Part shown: positions 2,856-22,453 of the stretch, piece after piece
Layout: each line of letters begins with the position of its first letter
Numbering within the stretch: position 1 is the stretch's first letter
Virus record (IMG/VR): IMGVR_UViG_2718217868_000005
Span: 1-22,453 of that record
DNA length: 22,453 bases
Source: a virus
Taxonomy: Duplodnaviria; Heunggongvirae; Uroviricota; Caudoviricetes
Direction: 5' to 3' (one strand)
The notes under the pieces: model-generated
What the model was told of the DNA's origin: nothing
Seen by the model: only the letters and a program-made list of their open reading frames with translations
Database searches by the model: none
Position numbers and translations under genes: made by a program

Positions 2856-3074
2856 TCAAAGAGAGAGCGCCACCTGTCCTGATTTCATTGGATGCGGCTG
2901 AACCGGATTTGACTCTTTTGGCGTTGCAATCGAACGAACAAAAGTTTCATGGGTAACAAAAGTATGGCTGCAGTTAATGTTCTGGCACTGGTTGTAACGC
3001 TCTTTGGTCAATGAAGATACCTGAAAACTGCTGCGAGTATGGGCGGCACTTCCACACAGTGGGCAAATCATCAT
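2856..3074 (-). CDS. ogr: Ogr/Delta-type zinc-finger late-gene activator (about 72 aa)
   Basis: CPLCG...CQNINCSHTF is a C2C2 zinc finger resembling P2 Ogr. Start chosen at the internal ATG (MMICPLCG); the 11-codon upstream extension is unlikely. Sits just downstream of gene D as in P2. Confidence 0.8.
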   Translation of the reverse strand: MMICPLCGSAAHTRSSFQVSSLTKERYNQCQNINCSHTFVTHETFVRSIATPKESNPVQPHPMKSGQVALSL

Positions 3075-3164
3075 TTTTCGAGTTCTCCCCATTTTTGCTA
3101 AATTCATAATAATGATACCGCATTATTCCATTTTGCAAACTTAAAAGTTCTCCATTGCGAAGAA

Positions 3165-4265: not shown

Positions 4266-4747
4266 GACAGCAGCCCTCCCACCGTTTTACTGATATCGCT
4301 TAAGGCAGACGTTGCCGTGTCCTGCAGATTATTCAGTTGCGCACTGAGATCACCGAACATATCGGACAGGGATTCATCCACCCGTTTGAGCGACAGGGTG
4401 AACTCAATCCGGCGCGGCATACCGTCGCGGAAAAACTCCGTTTTAGTCTGATTCAGTCCCTCAATCACATACATGCCGTAAATCGTGCCGCTGCCTTCAA
4501 TCAGGGGCCATGCTTTCCCCTGTTCTGCCATCTGCTCCAGTACCAGCAACGACAGCCTGCCGCCTGTTATCTCCGGCATAAGAACACCAGAAAGCGTCAG
4601 CATGTCGTTGTCCGGTCCCAGAAACTGCGTGGACGGACGTCGGTTGACCCGGCTGTTTGCCGCATGTCGCCAGCTGCGTTGATACTGCAGTTCCTGATAC
4701 GGCACAGTGCGCAGCATAAACACGTACAATCCCAGCACCATCATCAT
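4262..4747 (-). CDS. U: Tail protein U (161 aa)
   Basis: Position between T and D, with ATGA overlaps at both ends. Sequence resembles P2 gpU from memory. Confidence 0.85.
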   Translation of the reverse strand: MMMVLGLYVFMLRTVPYQELQYQRSWRHAANSRVNRRPSTQFLGPDNDMLTLSGVLMPEITGGRLSLLVLEQMAEQGKAWPLIEGSGTIYGMYVIEGLNQTKTEFFRDGMPRRIEFTLSLKRVDESLSDMFGDLSAQLNNLQDTATSALSDISKTVGGLLS

Positions 4748-7465
4748 GCGTCGTATCCCCCCTGATCGCTGTAGTTACTCCTGGCTTTTGCCTTCAGCCT
4801 GCGTTCACGTTCATCAAGCTGGCGTGCCACCTCCCGCGCAATATCCTGCGCACTTTGTCCTGGCTGCGTCTGGATGATGATCTGCGTCGGTGCCTCAATC
4901 CGTTGAGCGGGCGGCACAGTGGCTGCACGACTCACCATCGCTTCGCCGCCTTTCGCGGGAAGTGCCAAAGGATGTAACGGCGGAAGCTCTGCAGGCGCGG
5001 CAGCAACGCCCATCATTCCGGCAACAACGGCAGCCAGTGCAGCTGTATTTCTCCGACTGGTCACGTTTGCCGGACCGTTGACAATTTCAGGCCCGTTTTC
5101 ACCGACAATGCCGAACTGCCCGCGCGGGATATAGCCGCCGCTGTCATACATCCCCGCAAAGCCATATCCCCATGACGGAAAACCACCCGATGGCATCATC
5201 ACTTTACCGTCTGCATTCACCGTCGCAGGTTGCTGACGCGTCACGCTTTCCGGCAGTTTCGCCTTTGCGGCCTCTTTACTGACAATGCCGAGCTTCTCCA
5301 GCAACCAGGAAACGCCGGATTTCAGGGAGTCCAGCGGATGCATGACCATATTCAGCCCTTCCGCCAGTGCCTCCCCGAATCGCCGCCCCATTGCCGCTGC
5401 GCTCTGCAGTTCGGCAGAGGTCGACTTAACGGGCGTCAGCAGCTCAGTAAACCAGCCCCACAGCGCCTGCACTTTGTCGCCAATCCACTGGAACACGGGC
5501 TTAAGCGGTTCGAACGCTGCACTGATGGGACCTGCCGCCGCTTTGAATCCTTCCACCACGCCACCGAGAAATGCGGTGATGGGTTGCCAGTATTTCCAGA
5601 CAACCAGGGCCACGCCCGCCAGTGCAGTAACCACAAGACCTATCGGACTGAGCAGAGCACCTAACGGAAGATAACGTTTTGATACCCAACACAGAGAATC
5701 CCAGACGGATCACTGCCAGCGGCCCCAGCACTGCAGCCAGCGCCACCGCTAAGGTGCCGAGGCCGACGGTAACCGCAGCCACAACAGCCGATGCTTTCAT
5801 CAGTGTGCCTGTCAGTTCCGGGTTAGCTTCCACCCAGCGACGCAACGCCCCCGTGACGCTTTTCACCGTGTACAGAATATCCATCAGCGGCTGGCGCAGC
5901 GTTTCGCCCAGGCTGCTGAAGGTGTTCTGCGCTCCGGTTTTGACCAGCAACCACTGCGCAGAAAGTGAATCCTTGTTAATGTCGGATTCTTTCTGCATGG
6001 AGCCGAGCGCATCATTGCCCGCTGTCAGTTTTAACTGACGCTGCAGTTCCGGCAGGTTGTTTGCCAGTTTCGCCGCGTCATCGCCAAACTCTTTACCAAA
6101 CAACATAGTCATGGCAGACAGGCGCTTGTCCTGCGGCAGCGCGTTTACCTTCTCCAGCACGCGCTGGATGGTTCCCATCGCATCCTTCGTCATCTGCTTT
6201 TCAATCACTTCAGGATTGAGTTTCAGCAGATTCATCCCTTCAAAGAAACTCTTGCTTTGCATGGTGGCAATGGACAATTCACGCACCATCGCGTTTGCTG
6301 CACTGGCTGCAACCTCTGGCGCAGCGCCCAGTGTCAGGAAGGTGGAACCCAGCGCCGCCGCTTTACGATAATCCAGACGGTCAGCCACACCGCCCAGACG
6401 TTGCATCACATCAATGATGTCTGCCCCTTTCGACATGGCGTTATCATCCAGATAGTTCAGCGCATCACCGAGCTGTTCAATATTGCGGGTGGGGATTTTG
6501 TAGAGCTGGGCGATTTTCCCCAGACTTTCTGACAGTTCATCCGCTGGCAGCTCAAAGGCTGTTGCCGCCTTTGCTGCCGTACTGGCGAAGGCCAGCAGGT
6601 CACGTTTCTGATCTTCCCAGCTGTCGTCAGGGTTTGCGACGTTCATGCGCGCACCACCTTCAACCAGTGCAGCGAAGTCCACCGCACCGTTTTCCATCGG
6701 CAACTGTTCGCTGGCAGCCTTGATGGCATCCTGCATTTCATAAAAACGTGCAGTGCGGTTGCCATTATCGTCACGCAGACCATTGACCTGCTTTGCCACA
6801 CCTTTCATGGCATCTTCCATGCTGGTATAGCTTTTTACTGCCGCCATCACTGGCGCACCCATTGCCAGCCCTGCAGCCGTGGTGGTGGCTCCGGCACCTG
6901 CAATACGATCACGCACCTCCAGCGAACGGGCATAACTGGCACGCGCTGCATTCATCCTGCGCTGAGCTTCCCCCAGTCGCTTCAGCCGCGCCTCCTGTTT
7001 CGAAAGTTCCTGGTTATAACGTGATGTTTCACGGGCTAAACGGGCAGTTGCTCCCGCATCGTCTTTCGCAGAAATTCCCGCCCGGTACAGTTCAGCACGC
7101 ACAAGCGCCGTCTGCTGCTGCAGCTTTTTCTGGCGTTCTTCCAGGCGCTGAACAGCCAGCCGTTGACGGCCCAGAGCAACAACCTGACGTTGCGAAGGCG
7201 GCCCCATCGCTCCCAGTTCCTGACTGAGCAAATTTGCACGCTGGCGGGCATAGTTCAGCCTGTCGCTTAATTTCTGATTTTCTGCCTGCAGCTTTCGGAA
7301 GCTGTCCAGACTGCTCCCGGCCTGATCAAGCTGCTTTATTGCATCGCGGGATTTTTTGACAGCAGCAGCCAGTTCTCTTGAACTGGCCTGCGCAGATCGA
7401 AATGGGCGGGTGAGCTTGTCAACCGCATTAAGAATGACCTGCAGACGCAGGTTGTTATCACTCAT
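4744..7465 (-). pseudogene. T: Tail tape measure gene T, split by a 1-nt frameshift into 654-aa and 296-aa ORFs
   Basis: ORFs 5501-7465 and 4744-5634 are in different frames and overlap by 134 nt. Upstream part is coiled-coil (Q/R/A/L-rich); downstream part has hydrophobic and Gly-rich segments, typical of tape measure proteins. The frame switch maps to about 5665-5700, next to a TTTT run at 5677-5680. Confidence 0.8.
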
Positions 7466-7491: not shown

Positions 7492-7944
7492 TTATACCGC
7501 CATTCCAGCACTTCGGTCACTGGCGCTGAATGTCAGCATTTCAGTGCCCAGACTGGCAGGGTCATCAGTGGCAGCCAGGCCGACCAGGTAGGCTTTGCCC
7601 GTATCAGCAAACTTCGGGCTGACTTCCATAGAGGTGAATAATTTCTGGCCTTTTTTCACCAGTTCCACCAGGGACTCCGTTGGCTCAACGTCGGCATACA
7701 GCGCCATCTTGCCTGCCAGCGGACCTTCCGTGATTTCTTCAGCAAACAGCGCCGTCACCTTACCGTAGCGGTTAAAGGTGCTGTCCGGCAGATAAGACTT
7801 GATGTGCTCAAGGTTAATCAGCGCGGTATACACCGCCGGGTTGTAGCTGGCTGCCATCTGTTCCAGCCATTCACGCTGGATTTCGCGTCCGTCGGTGGTG
7901 GCACCTTCCACCCCGATGCGAAAACGCTTTGCTTTCACTGTCAT
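7492..7944 (-). pseudogene. O: Capsid scaffold gene O, truncated (N-terminal about 140 aa homologous, then a short unrelated tail)
   Basis: FRIGVEGATTDGREI...INLEH...SMEVSPKFADTGKAYLVGLAATDDPASLGTE matches the N-terminal half of P2 gpO (about 284 aa) from memory. The ORF stops 26 nt before the T start. SD ACGGAG upstream of the ATG at 7944. Confidence 0.8.
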
Positions 7945-8086: not shown

Positions 8087-9853
8087 ATGAACACCACACT
8101 GACACCCGCAGATCTCGATCCCCGTCGGCAGGCCATGCTGCTGTACTTTCAGGGATACCGCGTAGCCCGCATTGCTGAAATGCTGGGCGAGAAAGTTGCA
8201 ACCGTTCACAGCTGGAAAAAACGCGACAAGTGGGGTGACTATGGGCCGCTGGATCAGATGCAGCTCACCACCGCCGCACGCTACTGCCAGCTCATCATGA
8301 AGGAGCACAAAGAAGGGAAAGATTTCAAAGAGATTGACCTGCTGGCGCGCCAGTCGGAGCGCCAAGCGCGGATCGGCAAGTTTAACAATGGCGGCAACGA
8401 AGCTGACTTAAACCCTAACGTCGCCAACCGCAACAAAGGCCCGCGCCGTCAGCCGGAAAAGAATGTCTTCACCGATGAACAGATTGAGAAGCTGGAAGAA
8501 ATCTTCCATTCCTCCATGTTCAACTACCAGCGCCACTGGTGGGAAGTCGGAAAAACCAACCGCATCCGCAACCTGCTGAAGTCACGCCAGATCGGCGCGA
8601 CCTTTTACTTTGCCCGTGAAGCCCTGATTGACGCCCTGCTTACCGGACGTAACCAGATTTTCCTTTCCGCCAGTAAGGCACAGGCCCACGTCTTTAAGCA
8701 GTACATCATCGACTTCGCCAAAGAAGTGGATGTGGAACTGAAAGGCGATCCGATGGTGCTTCCTAACGGGGCCACGCTTTACTTCCTCGGCACCAATGCC
8801 CGCACGGCTCAAAGTTATCACGGCAACCTGTATCTGGATGAATATTTCTGGATACCGAAATTTCAGGAGCTACGCAAAGTGGCTTCCGGTATGGCTATTC
8901 ACAAGAAATGGCGGCAGACCTATTTTTCCACACCATCCAGCCTGACCCACAGTGCTTATCCGTTCTGGTCCGGTGCGCTGTTCAACCGTGGGCGCAACAA
9001 AGCCGATAAGGTGGACATCGACCTGTCCCACAGCAATCTGGCCCCCGGCCTGCTGTGCGCAGACGGGCAATACCGCCAGATAGTCACCGTGGAAGATGCG
9101 GTGCGCGGCGGCTGTAACCTGTTCGACCTTGACCAGTTGCGCATGGAGTACAGCCCGGACGAATACCAGAACCTGCTGATGTGCGAGTTTGTGGACGATC
9201 TCGCGTCCGTGTTCCCGCTCAGCGAGCTGCAGGCGTGCATGGTAGACAGCTGGGAAGTCTGGACTGACTTTCATGCACTGGCCCTGCGCCCGTTTGGCTG
9301 GCGCGAAGTATGGATCGGTTATGACCCGGCGAAAGGTACGCAGAATGGCGACAGCGCCGGATGCGTGGTGGTGGCTCCGCCAACCGTGCCGGGCGGCAAG
9401 TTCCGCATTCTTGAGCGTCACCAGTGGCGCGGAATGGACTTTCGCGCCCAGGCTGACGCCATCAAAAAACTGACCGAACAGTACAACGTGACCTACATCG
9501 GCATCGACTCGACAGGTGTCGGCCACGGGGTTTACGAGAACGTGAAAGCGTTTTTTCCAGCCGTCCGGGAGTTTGTCTACAACCCCAACGTTAAAAACGC
9601 CCTGGTACTCAAGGCCTACGACATTATCAGTCACCGTCGTCTGGAGTTTGACGCCGGACACACCGACATAGCGCAGTCATTTATGGCAATCCGTCGCGCC
9701 ACCACCGCCAGCGGCAACCGCCCAACCTATGAAGCCAGCCGCAGCGAAGAAGCCAGCCATGCCGATCTGGCCTGGGCAACAATGCACGCACTGTTTAACG
9801 AACCGCTGCAGGGCGAGTCCGCCAATACCAGCAATATTGTGGAGATTTTTTGA
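8087..9853 (+). CDS. P: Terminase large (ATPase) subunit, P2 gpP family, 588 aa
   Basis: Size and N-terminus match P2 gpP from memory. Divergent from O and upstream of Q as in P2. Confidence 0.9.
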   Translation: MNTTLTPADLDPRRQAMLLYFQGYRVARIAEMLGEKVATVHSWKKRDKWGDYGPLDQMQLTTAARYCQLIMKEHKEGKDFKEIDLLARQSERQARIGKFNNGGNEADLNPNVANRNKGPRRQPEKNVFTDEQIEKLEEIFHSSMFNYQRHWWEVGKTNRIRNLLKSRQIGATFYFAREALIDALLTGRNQIFLSASKAQAHVFKQYIIDFAKEVDVELKGDPMVLPNGATLYFLGTNARTAQSYHGNLYLDEYFWIPKFQELRKVASGMAIHKKWRQTYFSTPSSLTHSAYPFWSGALFNRGRNKADKVDIDLSHSNLAPGLLCADGQYRQIVTVEDAVRGGCNLFDLDQLRMEYSPDEYQNLLMCEFVDDLASVFPLSELQACMVDSWEVWTDFHALALRPFGWREVWIGYDPAKGTQNGDSAGCVVVAPPTVPGGKFRILERHQWRGMDFRAQADAIKKLTEQYNVTYIGIDSTGVGHGVYENVKAFFPAVREFVYNPNVKNALVLKAYDIISHRRLEFDAGHTDIAQSFMAIRRATTASGNRPTYEASRSEEASHADLAWATMHALFNEPLQGESANTSNIVEIF

Positions 9854-10953: not shown

Positions 10954-11625
10954 TTATCGCTCTTCCCCAAGAATTCCGGTCTTAATCAGCTGATTCCAGA
11001 AGTTTTTCATTTTCTGTCCTGTCTGCTGATTAACAAATAGAGATGATCTGGCACCGTGCGGATATCCCATCAACTGCCCGCGCATATCTTCCCAATTTTC
11101 ACAATAAACTGCATGCCGCCAGTTAGGAACCTCGCTTTCAAGCATCAATCCAATTGCTGCTTTTGCTGGAATGGTGCCATCCTCTTCCATATCTTCCGAA
11201 ATAAGCCAATGGCATTTTATTAACAACGGGACGGCGTTGTCATTATAAAGCACAACGTCATCAATCTTCTCAATAGAGAAATGGGCATCCGTGTGCTTTA
11301 GACGTTTTATACCAGCTATAAATTCATCAACCCCATGACCATAAGGACAGGTAAGAATGCCGTTCCTGAAATAGACCGTGTGGTCCAGGTATTTAAAGCT
11401 AGGAGTATTATTGGGAGTCATAGGCGCCCAAATAGCTTTATCTCTTTCCAGCAAAAAAGGATGCCATGCTGGATACCCATCCACTACTGGCCCACATTCT
11501 TCAACAATTTCTTTGAGCTTCGCCCTAACTTTCGAACGCATCTCCTGATTTGAACCTTGTGGAACTAGATATCTGTAAGCATTTTCGAAATTCGATGCTG
11601 CTGCTTCTTCCGCTCTGAAAGCCAT
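10954..11625 (-). CDS. Hypothetical cargo protein (223 aa), function unknown
   Basis: Intact ORF with SD-like GGGGTG about 7 nt upstream of the ATG at 11625. Lower GC than the flanking phage core. Lies between portal Q and the cos-like site, where P2 has essentially no coding sequence. No motif I recognise. Confidence 0.6.
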   Translation of the reverse strand: MAFRAEEAAASNFENAYRYLVPQGSNQEMRSKVRAKLKEIVEECGPVVDGYPAWHPFLLERDKAIWAPMTPNNTPSFKYLDHTVYFRNGILTCPYGHGVDEFIAGIKRLKHTDAHFSIEKIDDVVLYNDNAVPLLIKCHWLISEDMEEDGTIPAKAAIGLMLESEVPNWRHAVYCENWEDMRGQLMGYPHGARSSLFVNQQTGQKMKNFWNQLIKTGILGEER

Positions 11626-11643
11626 AAAACACCCCGCAATATA

Positions 11644-11665
11644 GATACATTACGCACAATGTATC
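11644..11665. promoter_or_regulatory. Perfect palindrome GATACATT-N6-AATGTATC overlapping the putative promoter of the 223-aa ORF
   Basis: 8-bp arms with a 6-bp spacer, 19-40 bp upstream of the ATG. Candidate minus-strand -35 TTGCAA (11680-11685), 17-nt spacer, -10 TACATT (11657-11662). Confidence 0.45.
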
Positions 11666-11845
11666 AATTTCATGCACAAGTTGCAATGTTTGTGTTTTAC
11701 CGCTTAAGCCAATTCCCTCAATAAACAACCTCAACAACTTCCTGTGGGGCGGTTTTTTTGCTGCTGCACCTCACCATTTCAATTTGAAGCCGCTAGCGGG
11801 CCGTAGGCTGTGCCGAGTTTTTGCTATTTCACCTCGTTGCGCGCG

Positions 11846-11864
11846 CTCGTATCCCCGCCACGCC
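11846..11864 (-). other. Candidate cos site (cohesive-end sequence)
   Basis: Minus strand reads GGCGTGGCGGGGATACGAG. The first 13 nt match my recollection of the 19-nt cohesive ends of 186 (GGCGTGGCGGGGAAAGCAT) and P2 (GGCGAGGCGGGGAAAGCAC). Orientation is correct: it reads from cos toward Q. Confidence 0.4.
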
Positions 11865-12060
11865 TGCCCACTTTATGTAGTGGTTTTCATGCACCTGCAT
11901 GATCTACGCAAAAGCCCGCCAGTTCTGGCGGACCTTAGCAAAAACGATCCGCAAACGATCATGCGATCTCATGCGGCATAGTCATGCACTTACGGGGGAA
12001 GTGAAATCCCGTAACCGAATGACCGCTTGAAAAACAAAACTCTCGTTTTTATAAAGCACA

Positions 12061-12086
12061 AAGTCCGCTTCGAGCGAAGCGGACTT
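12061..12086. terminator. Hairpin downstream of the KAP NTPase gene
   Basis: AAGTCCGCTTCG / CGAAGCGGACTT, a perfect 11-12 bp stem, about 63 nt after the stop at 12150, with T/A-rich flanks. Confidence 0.5.
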
Positions 12087-12149
12087 TAATAATTTTACTG
12101 ACCATGTCTAGTACTTCTAATAATATTACCTATGTTAATCAACAAAATG

Positions 12150-14042
12150 TTAATCAGTTCCCTCAGTAAATAATTTGATTGCATTAGTTAGTGCATAGTC
12201 AATAAAAAACTTTACATGAAAAACCTGAAAGGAGTTATTGGCTGCGTTTTGAGTGAAATCTACAGCTATCTCTTTTAGGCTAATCAACCAGTTGTATTCT
12301 TCGGTCAGTCTGGTTCTGGCATCCCTATCAGAATAACGATCCCTCAAGCTAAATGCCAGTTTCCTCATGATGATTGGGTCAAGTTTCCTATAGCTTTCAA
12401 TGAAAACTTCAGGAGAAACCAAGTGTAAAAAAGGCACGTTATGAAGATTTAGCTGCCTATTATTAGAATGACACAATTCAGATACAAACGATAAATTCCC
12501 TCTTTGCAACTCATCGCTGAACTTCAATGCAAACTCCGGAATTGATTCATCAAACCGTTTCTTCTGCGCTATCTTAATATGCTCAATAATGAGTTTGAAT
12601 TCATCGCTATCCCTGTCAAGAAAACCAAAGCCACGCCATGCCATTAACTCATTATAATGTCTTTGCGCATACTCCTGATGTATATCTTCAGGTCCTAATC
12701 CATTGTAATAAATATCTATATGATGTTTTGTCTCATTTATAATGTCATCAACAGCATCTGTGGTTAAACCTTCTTTCGCCAATGCCAGCAAAATACTCGC
12801 GGTCATCAGGAGTTCACCTAAGGAAGTGATCTTACCTGAAAATAGATTATCCTTGGCAATGGCGTACTGTTCATTAAGCATAGTTTCATTAAGTTCTCGA
12901 TAGTTCCACAAATACTCCCATGCTTGGGCATCGGTGCTTCTAAAAAATCGCGTAATATCCAGCTGAGCGAGAAGATCATGCGTTACCTTTCCATCACAGA
13001 TTAGCTCTCTCCAGTACGCACCATCCAGCAACGTCTCGGTTAATACAGGTGATGAATATTTCTCGACGATCATGTCATACTTAGTTTTGGTACGCCCTTT
13101 ATCTAAAAACATACTATAATTTACATTGCCGATTGAATTGAAATCCTCGTAGTTAAGGTTCCCTCCCCGATACTCCATCGAGAAAATTAATAACTGCTGG
13201 AAAAATACTTTCATAAAATCGTCGTTGCTGACATATTTATCTCCCAAAAGGGAAATGATGCGTTGTACATCAAGAAAGAACTGCCTCAAATGTCTTAGAT
13301 TATTATATTTCGCCGACACATAGAGGTGTTCTATGGTCTGCATATCTTCTTTAAATATATTAGCTACGTGTAAACTACTAATTACGCCCAAGAAAACATT
13401 ACAAGCACTATGTAAATCTGACGTTACTTCAAATGTTTTACCTACAAGCTTTTCTTTTGTTCTTATGTATTCACTGCTAGATTTCTCATCATCATTATTT
13501 ATTCGCTTTTCTCTGTTGATTATTTCTTCTTCATTGGCAACCAGGATCGCTTTGTATCCGTTTACTTCTACAAAGTGATTTATATATCCAAATAAGATTG
13601 GTAAATCTATACCAGCTCTCTCGATATCATCAAAGACCAGCACAAAACCATCTGGTTCTCTGCTAAAGTCGCTAAGATTAATGGTGGGGACACTGGCATT
13701 GACATCTACGTCAGGCTTATTATCGCCATTGAAATCGATCTTGAAAGTAGCCTTAAGCGTATTTTTTAGTACATTTGCACCAAAGATAAGGGCTTTGTTT
13801 GATAGAATAGGATGAAGTTGACGATAGAACTCATCTTCAATCTGCTCAATAGAGTTGACGCCATACAAACTCACTTTAAGAAATTTGAACTCTGAATGCT
13901 TTTGCTTATATTCTTCAAGAACTCGTTCAATGAACCAAGTTTTACCTGATCCCCAAGCACCTTTAAGCATAATGGCGTATTGAGGTTCAGTTTTAAGGCT
14001 AAGGTAATATTCTATATAGTCTTTGATGTACGTATTGTGCAT
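12150..14042 (-). CDS. KAP-family P-loop NTPase (about 630 aa), candidate anti-phage defence protein
   Basis: Walker A GAWGSGKT and Walker B-like FVLVFDDIER (the hhhhDD-x-ER form typical of KAP NTPases). Strongly AT-rich. Start placed at the ATG at 14042 (MHNTYIKDY); the track's TTG at 14093 has no SD. Candidate minus-strand -10 TATAAT at 14152-14157. Confidence 0.7.
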   Translation of the reverse strand: MHNTYIKDYIEYYLSLKTEPQYAIMLKGAWGSGKTWFIERVLEEYKQKHSEFKFLKVSLYGVNSIEQIEDEFYRQLHPILSNKALIFGANVLKNTLKATFKIDFNGDNKPDVDVNASVPTINLSDFSREPDGFVLVFDDIERAGIDLPILFGYINHFVEVNGYKAILVANEEEIINREKRINNDDEKSSSEYIRTKEKLVGKTFEVTSDLHSACNVFLGVISSLHVANIFKEDMQTIEHLYVSAKYNNLRHLRQFFLDVQRIISLLGDKYVSNDDFMKVFFQQLLIFSMEYRGGNLNYEDFNSIGNVNYSMFLDKGRTKTKYDMIVEKYSSPVLTETLLDGAYWRELICDGKVTHDLLAQLDITRFFRSTDAQAWEYLWNYRELNETMLNEQYAIAKDNLFSGKITSLGELLMTASILLALAKEGLTTDAVDDIINETKHHIDIYYNGLGPEDIHQEYAQRHYNELMAWRGFGFLDRDSDEFKLIIEHIKIAQKKRFDESIPEFALKFSDELQRGNLSFVSELCHSNNRQLNLHNVPFLHLVSPEVFIESYRKLDPIIMRKLAFSLRDRYSDRDARTRLTEEYNWLISLKEIAVDFTQNAANNSFQVFHVKFFIDYALTNAIKLFTEGTD

Positions 14043-14370
14043 TTTTAGTCCATTTTGATAAAATACATAAACATAGATGGTAAGTAGAGCCAAAGGCCAA
14101 CTATGGAAAATTCAATAGGTAGTGTACATTGTAAGGTTATTATTGGTAAATATTATAGGAATACCCATAATCTTACAAAATTCAGATTATCCGTTGCAAA
14201 TTAGTCTGCCATTCGTTAATTGACGAAAGATAGCAGAAGAAACGTTCGCTTCTGGCACAAAGTGGACGATCATTTATCAAAATGCCCCCCCACCTTACGC
14301 CTTACGCCTTATTTCACTCATTGCCCAAACTAGCCCCCATTCGAATGAATCCTCTTGGGGGCAACGTTTC

Positions 14371-19512: not shown

Positions 19513-20031
19513 TCACAGCAAACCGAATGAAGCACCGAGGCCAGTCACGGTATCAACTGCACTCGCCATCGCAGGGTTAGCCTGTAAACGGGCCTGCAAT
19601 GAAACAGCAGCCAACGCCATCAGTCGTGTTACAGAGTTAATGCTGCTGATAGCATCACGACGACCTGCACTGGTTTTTACATCGCCAGATACCGCACCTG
19701 CAGCAACACGCCCGATCTCTGCGGTTGCACTCATGACGTAATGTGGCAGTTTCTCTTTTGCCACCTCATTAATTGGTACGCATGGCAGGCAGTGAATCTG
19801 TGCCAGAAAACCATCTACCAACGTTGAATCTTCAGTCAGATCGGTAAGCAGCCAGATTTCTGGTGCGGTTAATAAATGAGGTTGAGCTGGGTTCAGCTTG
19901 TTCCGCAGAATCTGCACATTCATGCCCGCACGTTCTGCCAGTTGCACCAGATTGTGGCGCAGTGCGAATGCACGACAGGCTTCATCAAAATGTGGATGTT
20001 TGGAAACTTGGTAATCAAACATGGTTTTCAA
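19513..20031 (-). CDS. cII: CII-like lysogeny-establishment regulator (186 CII family), about 170 aa
   Basis: HTH region [18 protein letters not shown] and overall sequence resemble phage 186 CII from memory. Follows apl in the early rightward operon. The true start may be the ATG three codons in (MFDYQ). Confidence 0.75.
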
Positions 20032-20086
20032 CTCCGAACTTATCGCAAAATCGAACTCAGCGTCTTATTGCGAAAATAGACGTCTA

Positions 20087-20290
20087 TTAAGCAGACAAAG
20101 CATCAACAGTCAGAGCAGCCAGGTTAATCATTACCTTTTCACGTTTTTTGTCTTTACGAAGACGATGACGAGGTAGTCGGCCATCAGCCAACATGTCGTT
20201 AATCGTATCAATAGAAAGGCCAGTCAGTTCGCTATAACGTTCGATTGTGACATGTGGTGTATTCAGAGTAATTGAAATGTTAGGTGTCAT
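20087..20290 (-). CDS. apl: Apl/Cox-like excisionase and transcriptional regulator (67 aa)
   Basis: Small HTH protein ([22 protein letters not shown]), first gene of the operon divergent from cI, as for 186 apl and P2 cox. Confidence 0.65.
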
Positions 20291-20379
20291 AAGGCAACAT
20301 TCCTTCTAGATATGGCTTGTGGCGAGCCGTTGTTTGTCGTGATTAGTAGTGAAGGCTCCAAAAGAACACTTCTGGTTCA

Positions 20380-20408
20380 ACTTTAAGATCGCTTTTGGAA
20401 TCTGTCAA
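20380..20408 (-). promoter_or_regulatory. Candidate lytic promoter (pR-like) for the apl-cII operon
   Basis: On the minus strand: TTGACA (20403-20408), 17-nt spacer, TAAAGT (20380-20385), about 80 nt upstream of the apl ATG. The matching lysogenic promoter was not located. Confidence 0.35.
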
Positions 20409-20435
20409 CGAATTTTGGATTTCTTTGGAGGACTT

Positions 20436-21005
20436 GTGGATTTCAATAGCGGCGGTAAGAAAGCCATAGAACGTTTAGTTGAAGCATATGGGTTCGGTAC
20501 CCGTCAGGCTCTCTGTGATCATTTAGGTGTTTCTAAGAGCACCATGGCAACGCGCTATATGCGTGATATTTTTCCAGCAGATTGGGTAATCCAGTGCGCC
20601 CTTGAAACGGGCACCTCGCTTAATTGGCTAACAACAGGGCATGGTTCAAAGCAAGCATCAGCAAATACAAATACTATAGAAGTAGAAAAATATTTATTGT
20701 CTGATGGAGCATTGCAGAAAGACGGTTTTTATATTTTTGATAAGGAATTTCTACCCTCTACGTTTAAAAAACCTTTTGTCATCACAGATAACAATTCTGA
20801 ATTTATTTGTGATAAAGAATTTGATGATATACGTGATGGTAAATGGGTAATAAGTATTGATGGCGAAATAACGATCCGTGACATTACTCGTTTACCCGGT
20901 GGAAGAATCTTCGTCGAGGGTGGAAACAGAGCCTTCGAATGCAAGATAGAAGACATTGAAATAATTGGTAAAATTATAAGTTTAACAGTCAAATATGTTA
21001 AATAG
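20436..21005 (+). CDS. cI: CI-type immunity repressor (phage 186 CI family), about 189 aa
   Basis: Start placed at the in-frame GTG at 20436 directly after GGAGGA; the track's upstream GTG at 20349 has no SD. Position between apl and int matches the 186 arrangement. Family assignment is from memory. Confidence 0.7.
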   Translation: MDFNSGGKKAIERLVEAYGFGTRQALCDHLGVSKSTMATRYMRDIFPADWVIQCALETGTSLNWLTTGHGSKQASANTNTIEVEKYLLSDGALQKDGFYIFDKEFLPSTFKKPFVITDNNSEFICDKEFDDIRDGKWVISIDGEITIRDITRLPGGRIFVEGGNRAFECKIEDIEIIGKIISLTVKYVK

Positions 21006-21020
21006 TACCGGGAGGAAACT

Positions 21021-21212
21021 ATGCTTGGTAAGGTATTTTTTGTGGTTTTGTCATGTTCTTTGTTATTAAACCCACTAACTACCTATGCTAGAAATTATCC
21101 CTGCTCAGGGAAAAAGGGAGGTGTTTCTCACTGTACCTCAGATGGCAAATTCGTTTGCAATGATGGAACTATTAGTAAATCCAAAAAAATCTGTACTAAA
21201 AACTCACGATAA
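21021..21212 (+). CDS. Small secreted Cys-rich basic peptide (63-aa precursor)
   Basis: Strong SD GGAGGA 4 nt before the ATG. N-terminal signal peptide ([23 protein letters not shown]) with a likely cleavage site after TYA. Predicted mature part is about 40 aa with 4 Cys and many Lys. Lies between cI and int. Confidence 0.55.
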
Positions 21213-21400
21213 CTTTTGCTTTTATATCTGCGTCTAAAACAAAAATGAGCCGCAGGTTAACCGCAAAAGTTACATGCTCACATAGCAAAAAGAATAGCCA
21301 ACTTCATTATGGCTTCAGTGAGATGTATGGTCGTAGGATTTCATACATTGACACTGGTTATACATACAGTAAAAATGCTCTCTACTGGAGGGCATTTTTT

Positions 21401-22453
21401 ATGGCAGTACGAAAACTCACCACAGGGAAATGGCTTTGCGAATGTTACCCCGCCGGACGTAGTGGGCGTCGTGTGCGTAAACAATTCGCCACCAAAGGCG
21501 AAGCTCTGGCTTTTGAGCGCCACACGATGGAAGAAACCGAAGCAAAGCCCTGGCTGGGTGAATCAGTGGATCGTCGAACACTGAAAGACGTAGTTGAGCT
21601 ATGGTTCAAACTACATGGTAAATCTCTAACCGCTGGGCAGCATGTCTATGACAAATTGCTGTTGATGGTTGACGCTCTGGGCAATCCCCTTGCAACCGAT
21701 CTCACATCTAAAATGTTTGCCCACTATCGAGATAAACGCCTGACGGGTGAGATCTACTTCAGCGAGAAATGGAAAAAAGGAGCAAGCCCAGTCACTATTA
21801 ACCTGGAGCAAAGCTATCTTAGTAGTGTTTTTAGCGAACTATCCCGCCTGGGCGAATGGTCGTATCCGAACCCACTGGAGAACATGCGAAAATTCACCAT
21901 CGCAGAAAAAGAGATGGCATGGCTTACCCATGAGCAGATTGTTGAATTGCTGGCTGATTGTAAACGTCAGGACCCAATTCTGGCACTGGTAGTTAAGATA
22001 TGCTTAAGCACTGGCGCACGCTGGCGTGAAGCCGTAAATCTTACCCGCTCACAGGTGACCAAATACCGAATTACCTTTGTAAGAACGAAGGGGAAGAAAA
22101 ACAGAAGCATCCCTATCAGTAAAGAGCTTTACGAAGAGATCATGGCGCTTGATGGGTTCAATTTCTTCACAGACTGTTATTTTCAATTTTTATCCGTGAT
22201 GGAAAAAACGTCTATCGTGCTCCCTCGCGGTCAACTCACACACGTTCTGCGCCATACGTTTGCGGCGCACTTCATGATGTCGGGTGGAAACATTCTGGCC
22301 TTACAAAAAATTCTCGGACACCACGATATAAAAATGACTATGCGTTACGCACATCTGGCACCGGATCATCTGGAAACGGCGCTTCGTTTCAATCCTCTGG
22401 CAACGCTGCCAAGTGGCGACAAAGTGGCGGCAGCGGTTGGCATTACCCCGTAA
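21401..22453 (+). CDS. int: Tyrosine integrase, P2 Int family (350 aa)
   Basis: C-terminal catalytic region (HVLRHTFAAHFMMSGGNILALQKILGHHDIKMTMRYAHL, with the R/H-x-x-R/Y signature) and LSTGARWREA box. Start at the ATG at 21401 with SD GGAGGG; the 52-codon extension from 21245 is rejected. Confidence 0.9.
   Translation: MAVRKLTTGKWLCECYPAGRSGRRVRKQFATKGEALAFERHTMEETEAKPWLGESVDRRTLKDVVELWFKLHGKSLTAGQHVYDKLLLMVDALGNPLATDLTSKMFAHYRDKRLTGEIYFSEKWKKGASPVTINLEQSYLSSVFSELSRLGEWSYPNPLENMRKFTIAEKEMAWLTHEQIVELLADCKRQDPILALVVKICLSTGARWREAVNLTRSQVTKYRITFVRTKGKKNRSIPISKELYEEIMALDGFNFFTDCYFQFLSVMEKTSIVLPRGQLTHVLRHTFAAHFMMSGGNILALQKILGHHDIKMTMRYAHLAPDHLETALRFNPLATLPSGDKVAAAVGITP

Follow-up and report, generated by a model that had tools for sequence, protein, structure and literature searches.

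Here we describe a small gene of the ydcA type at positions 21021–21212 (+ strand) of a 22,453-nt stretch of DNA, IMG/VR virus record IMGVR_UViG_2718217868_000005 (the whole stretch is referred to as the window), where it lies between the immunity repressor gene cI and the integrase gene int. Judged by its predicted genes, this region is the lysogeny switch of a P2/186-like (Peduoviridae) Escherichia coli prophage. The reading tentatively preferred here, to which we give slightly less than even weight, is that ydcA is a genuine gene of this defective prophage encoding a YdcA-family mini-protein that would be expressed in lysogeny, disulfide-bonded, periplasmic and linked to the handling of DNA or nucleases. 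On its profile matches, the open reading frame (ORF) belongs, and is annotated as belonging, to a family that is known but uncharacterised, and is no new kind of element; the gene itself is ordinary as a discovery, and its value is as a handle on the functionally blank YdcA family. What is new is that E. coli K-12 YdcA and Legionella Dis2 are tied to one domain, that this domain has a recurrent fusion or operon partnership with exported nucleases, and that ydcA is kept behind the immunity repressor in several lineages of P2-like phages.

The ORF comprises 63 codons, with an ATG at 21021, located 15 nt past the cI stop codon (TAG, 21003–21005), and a stop codon at 21210–21212, 188 nt upstream of int. 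A preliminary description of the region had reported a strong Shine-Dalgarno (SD) sequence, a signal peptide and a Cys-rich, Lys-rich mature peptide of about 40 amino acids (aa) with four Cys, all of which were borne out. Specifically, a GGGAGG motif (21010–21015, + strand) lies 4 nt past the cI stop codon and 5 nt ahead of the ATG, codons 1–23 (21021–21089, + strand) would encode a Sec-type signal peptide with n, h and c regions read from the sequence, and the predicted mature protein (21090–21212 with the stop codon, + strand) has 40 aa, among them 4 Cys, 7 Lys and 2 Arg, and its isoelectric point (pI) was calculated as 9.7. The N-terminus consists of MLGK, a hydrophobic stretch and NPLTTYA, followed by RNYPC, with a predicted cut after TYA. 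In an alignment of homologues (n = 49), the Ala at position -1 was kept in at least 90% of sequences and the hydrophobic core was also kept, the signal-peptide sequence being otherwise free. The SD of diverged E. coli copies reads GGGAGG or TGGAGG, and AAGGAA or AAGGAG in the other types among the loci compared. These signals confirm, at the level of sequence, a genuine, translatable gene with an export signal. A fifth Cys (residue 12) falls within the signal peptide and is not conserved among homologues; a lipoprotein reading (Llp/Cor/Bor-type outer-membrane signal) was rejected on this ground and for want of a lipobox.

The ORF product scored 115.8 bits on the NCBIfam model NF007463 (PRK10040.1-2), for which the cut-off is 93 (E = 5.3e-34, residues 5–63 on profile positions 1–58) and missed the sub-model NF007462 (68.5 vs 118 bits), so that the homology search proposed in the preliminary description, once run, identified the YdcA family. 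It also matched phrog_6000 (E = 1.9e-34), a PHROG family of unknown function. An identical protein is present in RefSeq as WP_000900883.1, named “YdcA family protein”, and Pfam PF27300 is precomputed on all close homologues; scanning the peptide against Pfam-A yielded no more than a spurious GULLO2-like match below threshold (E = 0.075), PF27300 being newer than the Pfam copy scanned. The family comprises 452 representatives of 50%-identity clusters at E <= 1e-3, or 1428 clusters at 90% identity, and is spread over Gamma-, Beta- and Alphaproteobacteria. Within its core of about 35 aa, the window peptide carries the four conserved Cys and the motifs PCSGKKGG, FVCNDG and SKSK; columns P4, K9, C15, F21, C23, G26, S29, S31, K32 and C35 of the same 49-sequence alignment were invariant, and C5, G10, G11, H14 and D25 near-invariant. 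The UniRef name “Conjugal transfer protein” was unsupported by the contexts examined, in which one 3.9-kb Acinetobacter plasmid has the gene beside a TraD-like gene.

Selection on the gene was apparent at two levels of divergence. The copy in E. coli B differs from that in the window by 11 synonymous changes and one conservative replacement (R24K), and comparison of the 34-codon mature core with a diverged E. coli copy gave 21 synonymous differences over 21.5 sites and 2 non-synonymous differences over 80.5 sites, with a dN of 0.78 in the signal-peptide codons of the same pair vs 0.025 in the mature part. By this measure, purifying selection on the mature YdcA core is very strong, whereas the signal peptide is left to drift. 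A chance ORF or non-functional remnant in AT-rich intergenic DNA would be compatible with 63 codons of 35% GC DNA surrounded by a defective prophage, but a product that passes the family cut-off, a family of the size given above, a conserved SD and saturated synonymous change with almost no non-synonymous change speak against it; the selection and family evidence together exclude this explanation, whose probability we put close to nil. It is also very unlikely that the product is a secreted cationic antimicrobial or bacteriocin-like peptide that kills competitors, as might be suggested by its small size, strongly basic pI, richness in disulfides, signal peptide and what we take to be a defensin-like appearance. 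The contexts examined held no immunity, processing or export partner gene, a Sec signal delivers to the periplasm only, many species carry single-copy YdcA homologues on the core chromosome, and the peptide is near-invariant across genera, unlike diversifying bacteriocins.

The chromosomal YdcA of E. coli K-12 (b1419, 57 aa) shares 57% identity over 53 residues with the window protein, along with its size, signal peptide and four-Cys core. The two differ in their setting, K-12 ydcA lying between cybB/rydC and hokB on the chromosome and the prophage copy in the lysogeny module behind cI, and in their sub-model, the prophage protein falling in NF007463, apart from NF007462. For K-12 YdcA, a periplasmic location is predicted and the function is given as unknown (PMC11340327, 2024). 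Deletion of the chromosomal gene made E. coli W sensitive to 3-hydroxypropionate (3-HP), and induction at pH 5 via YdcI was reported (PMC7642389); this 3-HP phenotype was the only one found in the literature search, and searches on the RefSeq accessions, PF27300 and “YdcA family” returned no functional study. Many papers that mention a “ydcA” deal with other organisms or elements (B. subtilis, the Neisseria genetic island, plasmid ORFs) and were left aside. Since the prophage gene lies behind cI, its expression would follow the repressor promoter and not the YdcI/acid regulation reported for the host gene.

The AF2 model of the mature peptide (pLDDT 81) includes a small beta hairpin. Its top Foldseek match was chain 7muc_AN, the Legionella protein Dis2 (Lpg0823), with a TMq of 0.61 and 38% identity, and the same chain was matched by sequence with E = 3e-5 (phmmer, single sequence) and 2e-4 (profile). 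The first lobe of Dis2 aligns well and the second weakly, over a common Cys framework, C-S-K-x-GG-[IV]-x-x-C ... G-[KR]-[FL]-V-C-N-[DN]-G. On these matches, Dis2 is homologous to the widespread YdcA family, against the view in the literature of a Legionella-specific protein without structural relatives. Dis2 is exported, disulfide-stabilised and periplasmic, as predicted for prophage YdcA, and its lobes are disulfide-pinned and close to the outer membrane (PMC8486379). It differs in having 124 aa in two lobes with five disulfides, as compared to a single 40-aa lobe with four Cys, in lacking the conserved KK and SKSKK motifs of YdcA, and in being part of a type IV secretion system (T4SS), Dot/Icm, whereas the window and all prophage loci hold phage genes only and no T4SS genes. 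The homology therefore supports a periplasmic location and disulfide bonding for YdcA and says little on function. Dis2 contacts the lipoproteins DotK, DotC and DotD within the Dot/Icm cap, but neither the structure of the T4SS nor growth in macrophages requires it (PMC12716638), so that it gives little functional guidance.

The link to DNA comes from other members of the family. The recognised partner domains among the 20 longer relatives scanned were nucleases only, of three unrelated folds: SNase (P0112), Endonuclease_NS (P0168, P0188 and P0189, and also P0249) and PLDc_2 of the PLD/Nuc type (P0169). In all these fusions the YdcA domain is N-terminal, right behind the signal peptide. In Alphaproteobacteria, ydcA lies beside a gene for an exported SNase, or overlaps it, in Shinella, Xanthobacter, Brucella, Methylobacterium and Microvirga (loci L034, L076, L099, L100, L107 and L108). 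The YdcA-domain nucleases have the same Cys and Lys motifs as the prophage protein, which is the domain alone, with no nuclease gene in the lysogeny module of the window. Taken together, the fusions and operons, the conserved Lys, Ser and Gly motifs with surface Lys/Ser (GKKGG, SKSKK) and the high pI make it most economical to read the domain as an extracytoplasmic module for DNA binding or for partnership with periplasmic nucleases, a reading that, considered on its own, we hold to be doubtful, well short of an even chance.

The same partnerships could be read as regulation, with YdcA acting as an inhibitor or pro-domain-like chaperone that would hold exported nucleases inactive, or in their proper fold, up to their destination, and the prophage copy modulating the host periplasmic endonuclease. 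The stop/start overlap with SNase genes at two loci (L076 and L107), which is typical of stoichiometric partners, would agree with this, as would the N-terminal position of the domain in the fusions and a weak, non-significant resemblance in the PDB to Cys-rich proteinase inhibitors (E = 0.14–1.8). We consider such a regulator quite unlikely: the inhibitor-like matches are not significant, no known nuclease inhibitor has the YdcA fold, and it is not evident how inhibition of a host nuclease in lysogeny would benefit a prophage. The wider set of PDB resemblances, to Pin-II proteinase inhibitors and lectins (E = 0.14–3.5), was likewise rejected as not significant.

Of 5426 complete E. coli genomes, 648 carry the ORF, with few exceptions in single copy, and natural carriers include E. 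coli B (BL21, REL606), HS, ATCC 8739 and ML35. Phages of Klebsiella, Yersinia and Haemophilus have the gene in the corresponding slot; the conservation among related prophages on which the preliminary description had made its interpretation depend is thus present. At least 532 relatives were found in IMG/VR, the best 80 of which have an identical mature peptide and mostly lie about 1.24 kb from one end of the viral contig, a distance equal to the length of the spacer plus int. The ORF was found in no isolated coliphage of the phage collection, the related Klebsiella and E. coli phages having only int in common. The order cI, ydcA, int is seen again in 186-like prophages from E. coli, Klebsiella and Yersinia. 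In Haemophilus phage HP2 (NC_003315, locus L001), and also in S2, an unannotated YdcA-family ORF of 59 aa (HP2 positions 2920–3099) follows a repressor with 32% identity to the window CI, its ATG overlapping the cI stop codon (TAATG). The next HP2 gene, orf1(S), located before int, encodes an exported tRNA_anti-like OB-fold protein (PF12869, E = 2.8e-13), which we count with the nuclease link of the domain.

In phage 186, cI and int abut without ydcA, and the claim that the gene had been inserted between repressor and integrase holds only relative to that phage. Between two E. coli loci, Int is 98% identical with CI only 65% identical, and YdcA divergence tracks the CI type, not Int, so that cI–ydcA looks like an old linked pair. 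In a neighbourhood sample of the 80 best species-representative loci, the same CI family was immediately upstream of ydcA in nine, and a repressor with HTH and Peptidase_S24 domains was upstream on the same strand in eight betaproteobacterial loci (Comamonas, Aquabacterium, Iodobacter and others). These eight lie inside P2-like prophages, with Ogr, gpA and gpD nearby, and often have one or two other ORFs between repressor and ydcA. Whether retained or arrived at anew, a repressor-then-ydcA order found with two unrelated repressor families points to selection for expressing the gene together with immunity. Elsewhere, ydcA occupies chromosomal sites (M. bovoculi, Herbaspirillum and K-12), Acinetobacter and Rhizobium plasmids, and the head-tail module of Moraxella phages. 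Among the betaproteobacterial loci, an intervening ORF in Comamonas testosteroni (L077) has a lipoprotein-like N-terminus, and several loci from Comamonas and Aquabacterium, including L077, L088 and L092, encode a two-domain protein in which the YdcA domain is joined to a second Cys-rich module, C..C..CTGPRGG.YC.

In the window, the gene upstream of ydcA is cI (20436–21005, + strand), which encodes an immunity repressor of 189 aa (Phage_CI_repr, 3.3e-31; Phage_CI_C, 4e-29) from a GTG start with a GGAGG SD, and the same 570-nt coding sequence is annotated in identical RefSeq loci. Divergent from it lies an apl/cox-like excisionase-repressor gene (20087–20290, − strand; phrog_575, Cox-like excisionase and repressor, 1e-29), followed by a gene for the lysogeny-establishment activator cII (CP76; 19513–20031, − strand; Pfam Phage_CP76, 3.4e-42). 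A putative lysogenic promoter pL, TTGAAA-17 nt-CAACAT (20272–20300, + strand), occupies the position homologous to the annotated pL of phage 186, with its -35 element 13–18 nt inside apl and its -10 element 5–10 nt upstream of the apl ATG; it was not flagged in the consensus promoter scan and is assigned by position only. The scan showed no terminator-like site between cI and the small ORF. With the 15-nt gap, the lack of a terminator and a pL placed as in phage 186, co-transcription of cI and ydcA from pL in the lysogen is a reasonable inference. The placement in a lysogenic operon given in the preliminary description is thus supported by co-orientation between cI and int, the short gap and the overlap in HP2; the prophage expression that it had also claimed would follow from this arrangement.

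On the preferred reading of YdcA as a DNA- or nuclease-handling protein of the lysogen, the prophage product would be made from pL, exported to the periplasm with its signal peptide cut after TYA, and stabilised by two disulfides, as in the homologous Dis2 lobes. Its target there would be DNA arriving in the periplasm, which it might, for example, hold or present to a host nuclease, thereby adding a DNA-entry barrier on top of repressor immunity. Several points weigh against this. DNA binding is deduced from fusion and neighbourhood data, and the nuclease fusions are a small minority (one of the 120 best 90%-identity clusters and five of the 20 long proteins scanned). Dis2 is peripheral in its secretion machine, contacts lipoproteins and not DNA, and is without the Lys motifs. 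About 80% of the species-level occurrences are not beside a recognised repressor, and pL, co-transcription and the termination at the int hairpin described below are assigned from position and folding only. Phage DNA as a rule passes through the periplasm in a conduit, and a periplasmic DNA binder may never meet it. Finally, E. coli already has a chromosomal ydcA, with which a general envelope function is equally compatible.

Such a function would make YdcA an envelope or outer-membrane accessory that docks on lipoprotein or OmpA-like assemblies or on anionic lipid head groups and contributes to the robustness or stress tolerance of the lysogen, a lysogenic conversion of the fitness type, with no role in exclusion or with DNA. 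The position of Dis2 beside the outer membrane and its lipoprotein contacts (PMC12716638) favour this possibility, as do the 3-HP sensitivity of the E. coli W deletion and the pH 5 induction via YdcI (PMC7642389), the location of most YdcA members on chromosomes outside prophages, an OmpA-family gene about 2 kb away in Atlantibacter and Citrobacter loci, and the intact state of ydcA in the degraded prophages of E. coli B and the window. It leaves unexplained, however, why YdcA is repeatedly linked, by fusion or operon, with nucleases of three unrelated folds; Dis2 has none of the conserved Lys motifs, and the 3-HP phenotype is a single report and was overridden by yieP deletion (PMC7642389). 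On balance we regard an envelope accessory as rather unlikely. An anchoring or an inhibitory role cannot be separated by computation from the DNA/nuclease reading.

The interval between cI and int behaves as a variable cargo slot, as shown by comparison of loci L007, L010–L015 and L028 (phage vB_EcoM-813R9). It is empty in phage 186 and holds ydcA alone in the window; some relatives have ydcA together with a KAP NTPase located between ydcA and int (PADLOC PDC-S20, E = 2e-171), and one has an ATPase matching PD-Lambda-1 (E = 3e-120) in place of ydcA. The presence of validated or candidate defence genes in the same slot of relatives raises the prior for a defence-type role, without proof. In a Yersinia relative, a PDC-S21-like gene was seen after int. 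The ydcA product itself had no family match in PADLOC and nothing significant in a BFVD fold search, and a literature search for a described periplasmic exclusion factor co-transcribed with the repressor found nothing relevant. The preliminary description had called the placement of the gene typical of lysogenic-conversion or superinfection-exclusion factors; its lysogenic placement agrees with this, whereas the product matches no known defence or exclusion family and most family members lie outside prophages, so that either role is plausible from placement.

Two known systems offer analogies with no sequence or family relationship to ydcA. The lambda genes rexA–rexB are transcribed with cI from pRM, a repressor-adjacent, same-strand placement like that of prophage ydcA, but RexAB are cytoplasmic or inner-membrane proteins whereas prophage YdcA is predicted to be periplasmic. 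T4 Spackle is a small exported periplasmic exclusion protein and resembles YdcA in being a small exported product. In a broader and more speculative proposal, which we think improbable, YdcA mini-proteins would form a widespread periplasmic DNA-binding or nuclease-adaptor domain, the copies in P2-like phages, co-expressed with the repressor and in HP2 also translationally coupled to it, would be a new exclusion factor intercepting superinfecting phage, conjugative or transforming DNA in the periplasm, possibly via a host endonuclease, and the Dis2 domain would be what is left of an accessory, for nucleases or DNA handling, in type IVB conjugation-derived machines.

Downstream of ydcA, int (21401–22453, + strand) encodes a tyrosine integrase of 350 aa (Pfam Int_N, 3.2e-32; Phage_integrase, 7.2e-22), and the host gene rcdA comes next in genomes with 100% identical DNA. 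A longer int reading of 402 aa from an ATG at 21245 was rejected, as 21401, where an SD is in place, is the start used in RefSeq and by the homologues. The preceding 188 nt (21213–21400) had been described as an AT-rich spacer of about 190 bp, a description that needs correction: its GC content of 37% is similar to that of cI (38%) and the ORF (35%), in a window of 49%, so that it is no more AT-rich than its flanking genes, and it is a structured, conserved leader of int. The RNA fold of 21213–21420 had a minimum free energy of -59.5 kcal/mol, with z = -5.1 relative to 200 shuffles; the Rfam scan of 19900–22453 returned nothing relevant. A first hairpin in the fold (CUUUUGC...GCAAAAG with an inner CUGCG/CGCAG stem; 21213–21269, + strand) begins directly after the ydcA stop codon and has no U run.

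The last ~80 nt of the leader (21323–21400) travel with int as a module, even where other cargo is inserted. An inverted repeat ATGTATG..CATACAT (21323–21348, + strand) abuts the -35 element of a promoter-like site, and its arms co-vary, being ATGTTTG/CAAACAT in Klebsiella and Yersinia and ATGTTTAA/TTAAACAT in another E. coli type; homology with the Klebsiella and E. coli phages that share only int begins at window position 21323 or 21343. The promoter-like site, TTGACA-17-AAAAAT (21348–21376, + strand), had 10 of 12 matches in a consensus scan, and E. coli, Klebsiella and Yersinia loci preserve the position of each hexamer as well as the 17-nt spacing. It is followed by a 13-bp hairpin, AAAAAUGCUCUCU-ACU-GGAGGGCAUUUUU and then U (21371–21400, + strand), with a folding energy of -16.4 kcal/mol, which encloses the int SD (GGAGG, 21387–21391) and ends one base short of the int ATG. 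Between Klebsiella and E. coli variants, the equivalent hairpins at loci L010 (GTCCTCA/TGAGGAC) and L013 (GCCCTCA/TGAGGGC) differ by a compensatory change from T-A to C-G, with a T run after both. The element looks like a combined terminator and SD-sequestering hairpin, and the arrangement suggests that int is shielded from the pL transcript and relies for its expression on a separate promoter, whose transcripts begin within the hairpin. The pL transcript would largely end, or be translationally silenced, at the hairpin holding the int ribosome-binding site, and transcripts from the int-proximal promoter would start inside it and leave the SD free. With pL transcripts stopped or silenced in this way, cI–ydcA would constitute a constitutive “immunity” unit.

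The window prophage is defective. Its head-scaffold gene is truncated (N-terminal half of gpO, 7495–7944) and abuts the tape-measure region, in which the tape-measure gene is split into two overlapping ORFs (5501–7465 and 4744–5634), and capsid, lysis, baseplate, fibre and sheath genes are absent between the truncated scaffold region and the terminase (8087–9853). The copy in E. coli B is also degraded, yet its cI–ydcA–int order is intact. At the far side of the window, a host permease gene (935–2620; Asp-Al_Ex and TrkA_C domains) is followed by a small ORF matching phrog_603 (2856–3107; transcriptional regulator), which together mark the other prophage end near 2.7–2.9 kb, so that the whole element would be only about 19.7 kb. 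Some E. coli matches were recorded as plasmids; these were rejected as true plasmids, as they carry the host genes rcdA-ybjJ-ybjI and look like chromosomal fragments. One of them (L009; NZ_CP148400.1, pZ1323HEC0009-3), a 55-kb record typed as a non-mobilizable plasmid in which the prophage end is followed by rcdA, ybjJ and ybjI, is probably a chromosomal fragment or an excised or misassembled piece, not a plasmid. Between portal and gpA, where the main defence hotspot of P2-like phages has been described, the window also holds (10954–14093, − strand) a gene for a 647-aa KAP-family NTPase that matches the PADLOC candidate PDC-S49 (E = 2.8e-161) and, beside it, a 223-aa ORF without family match.

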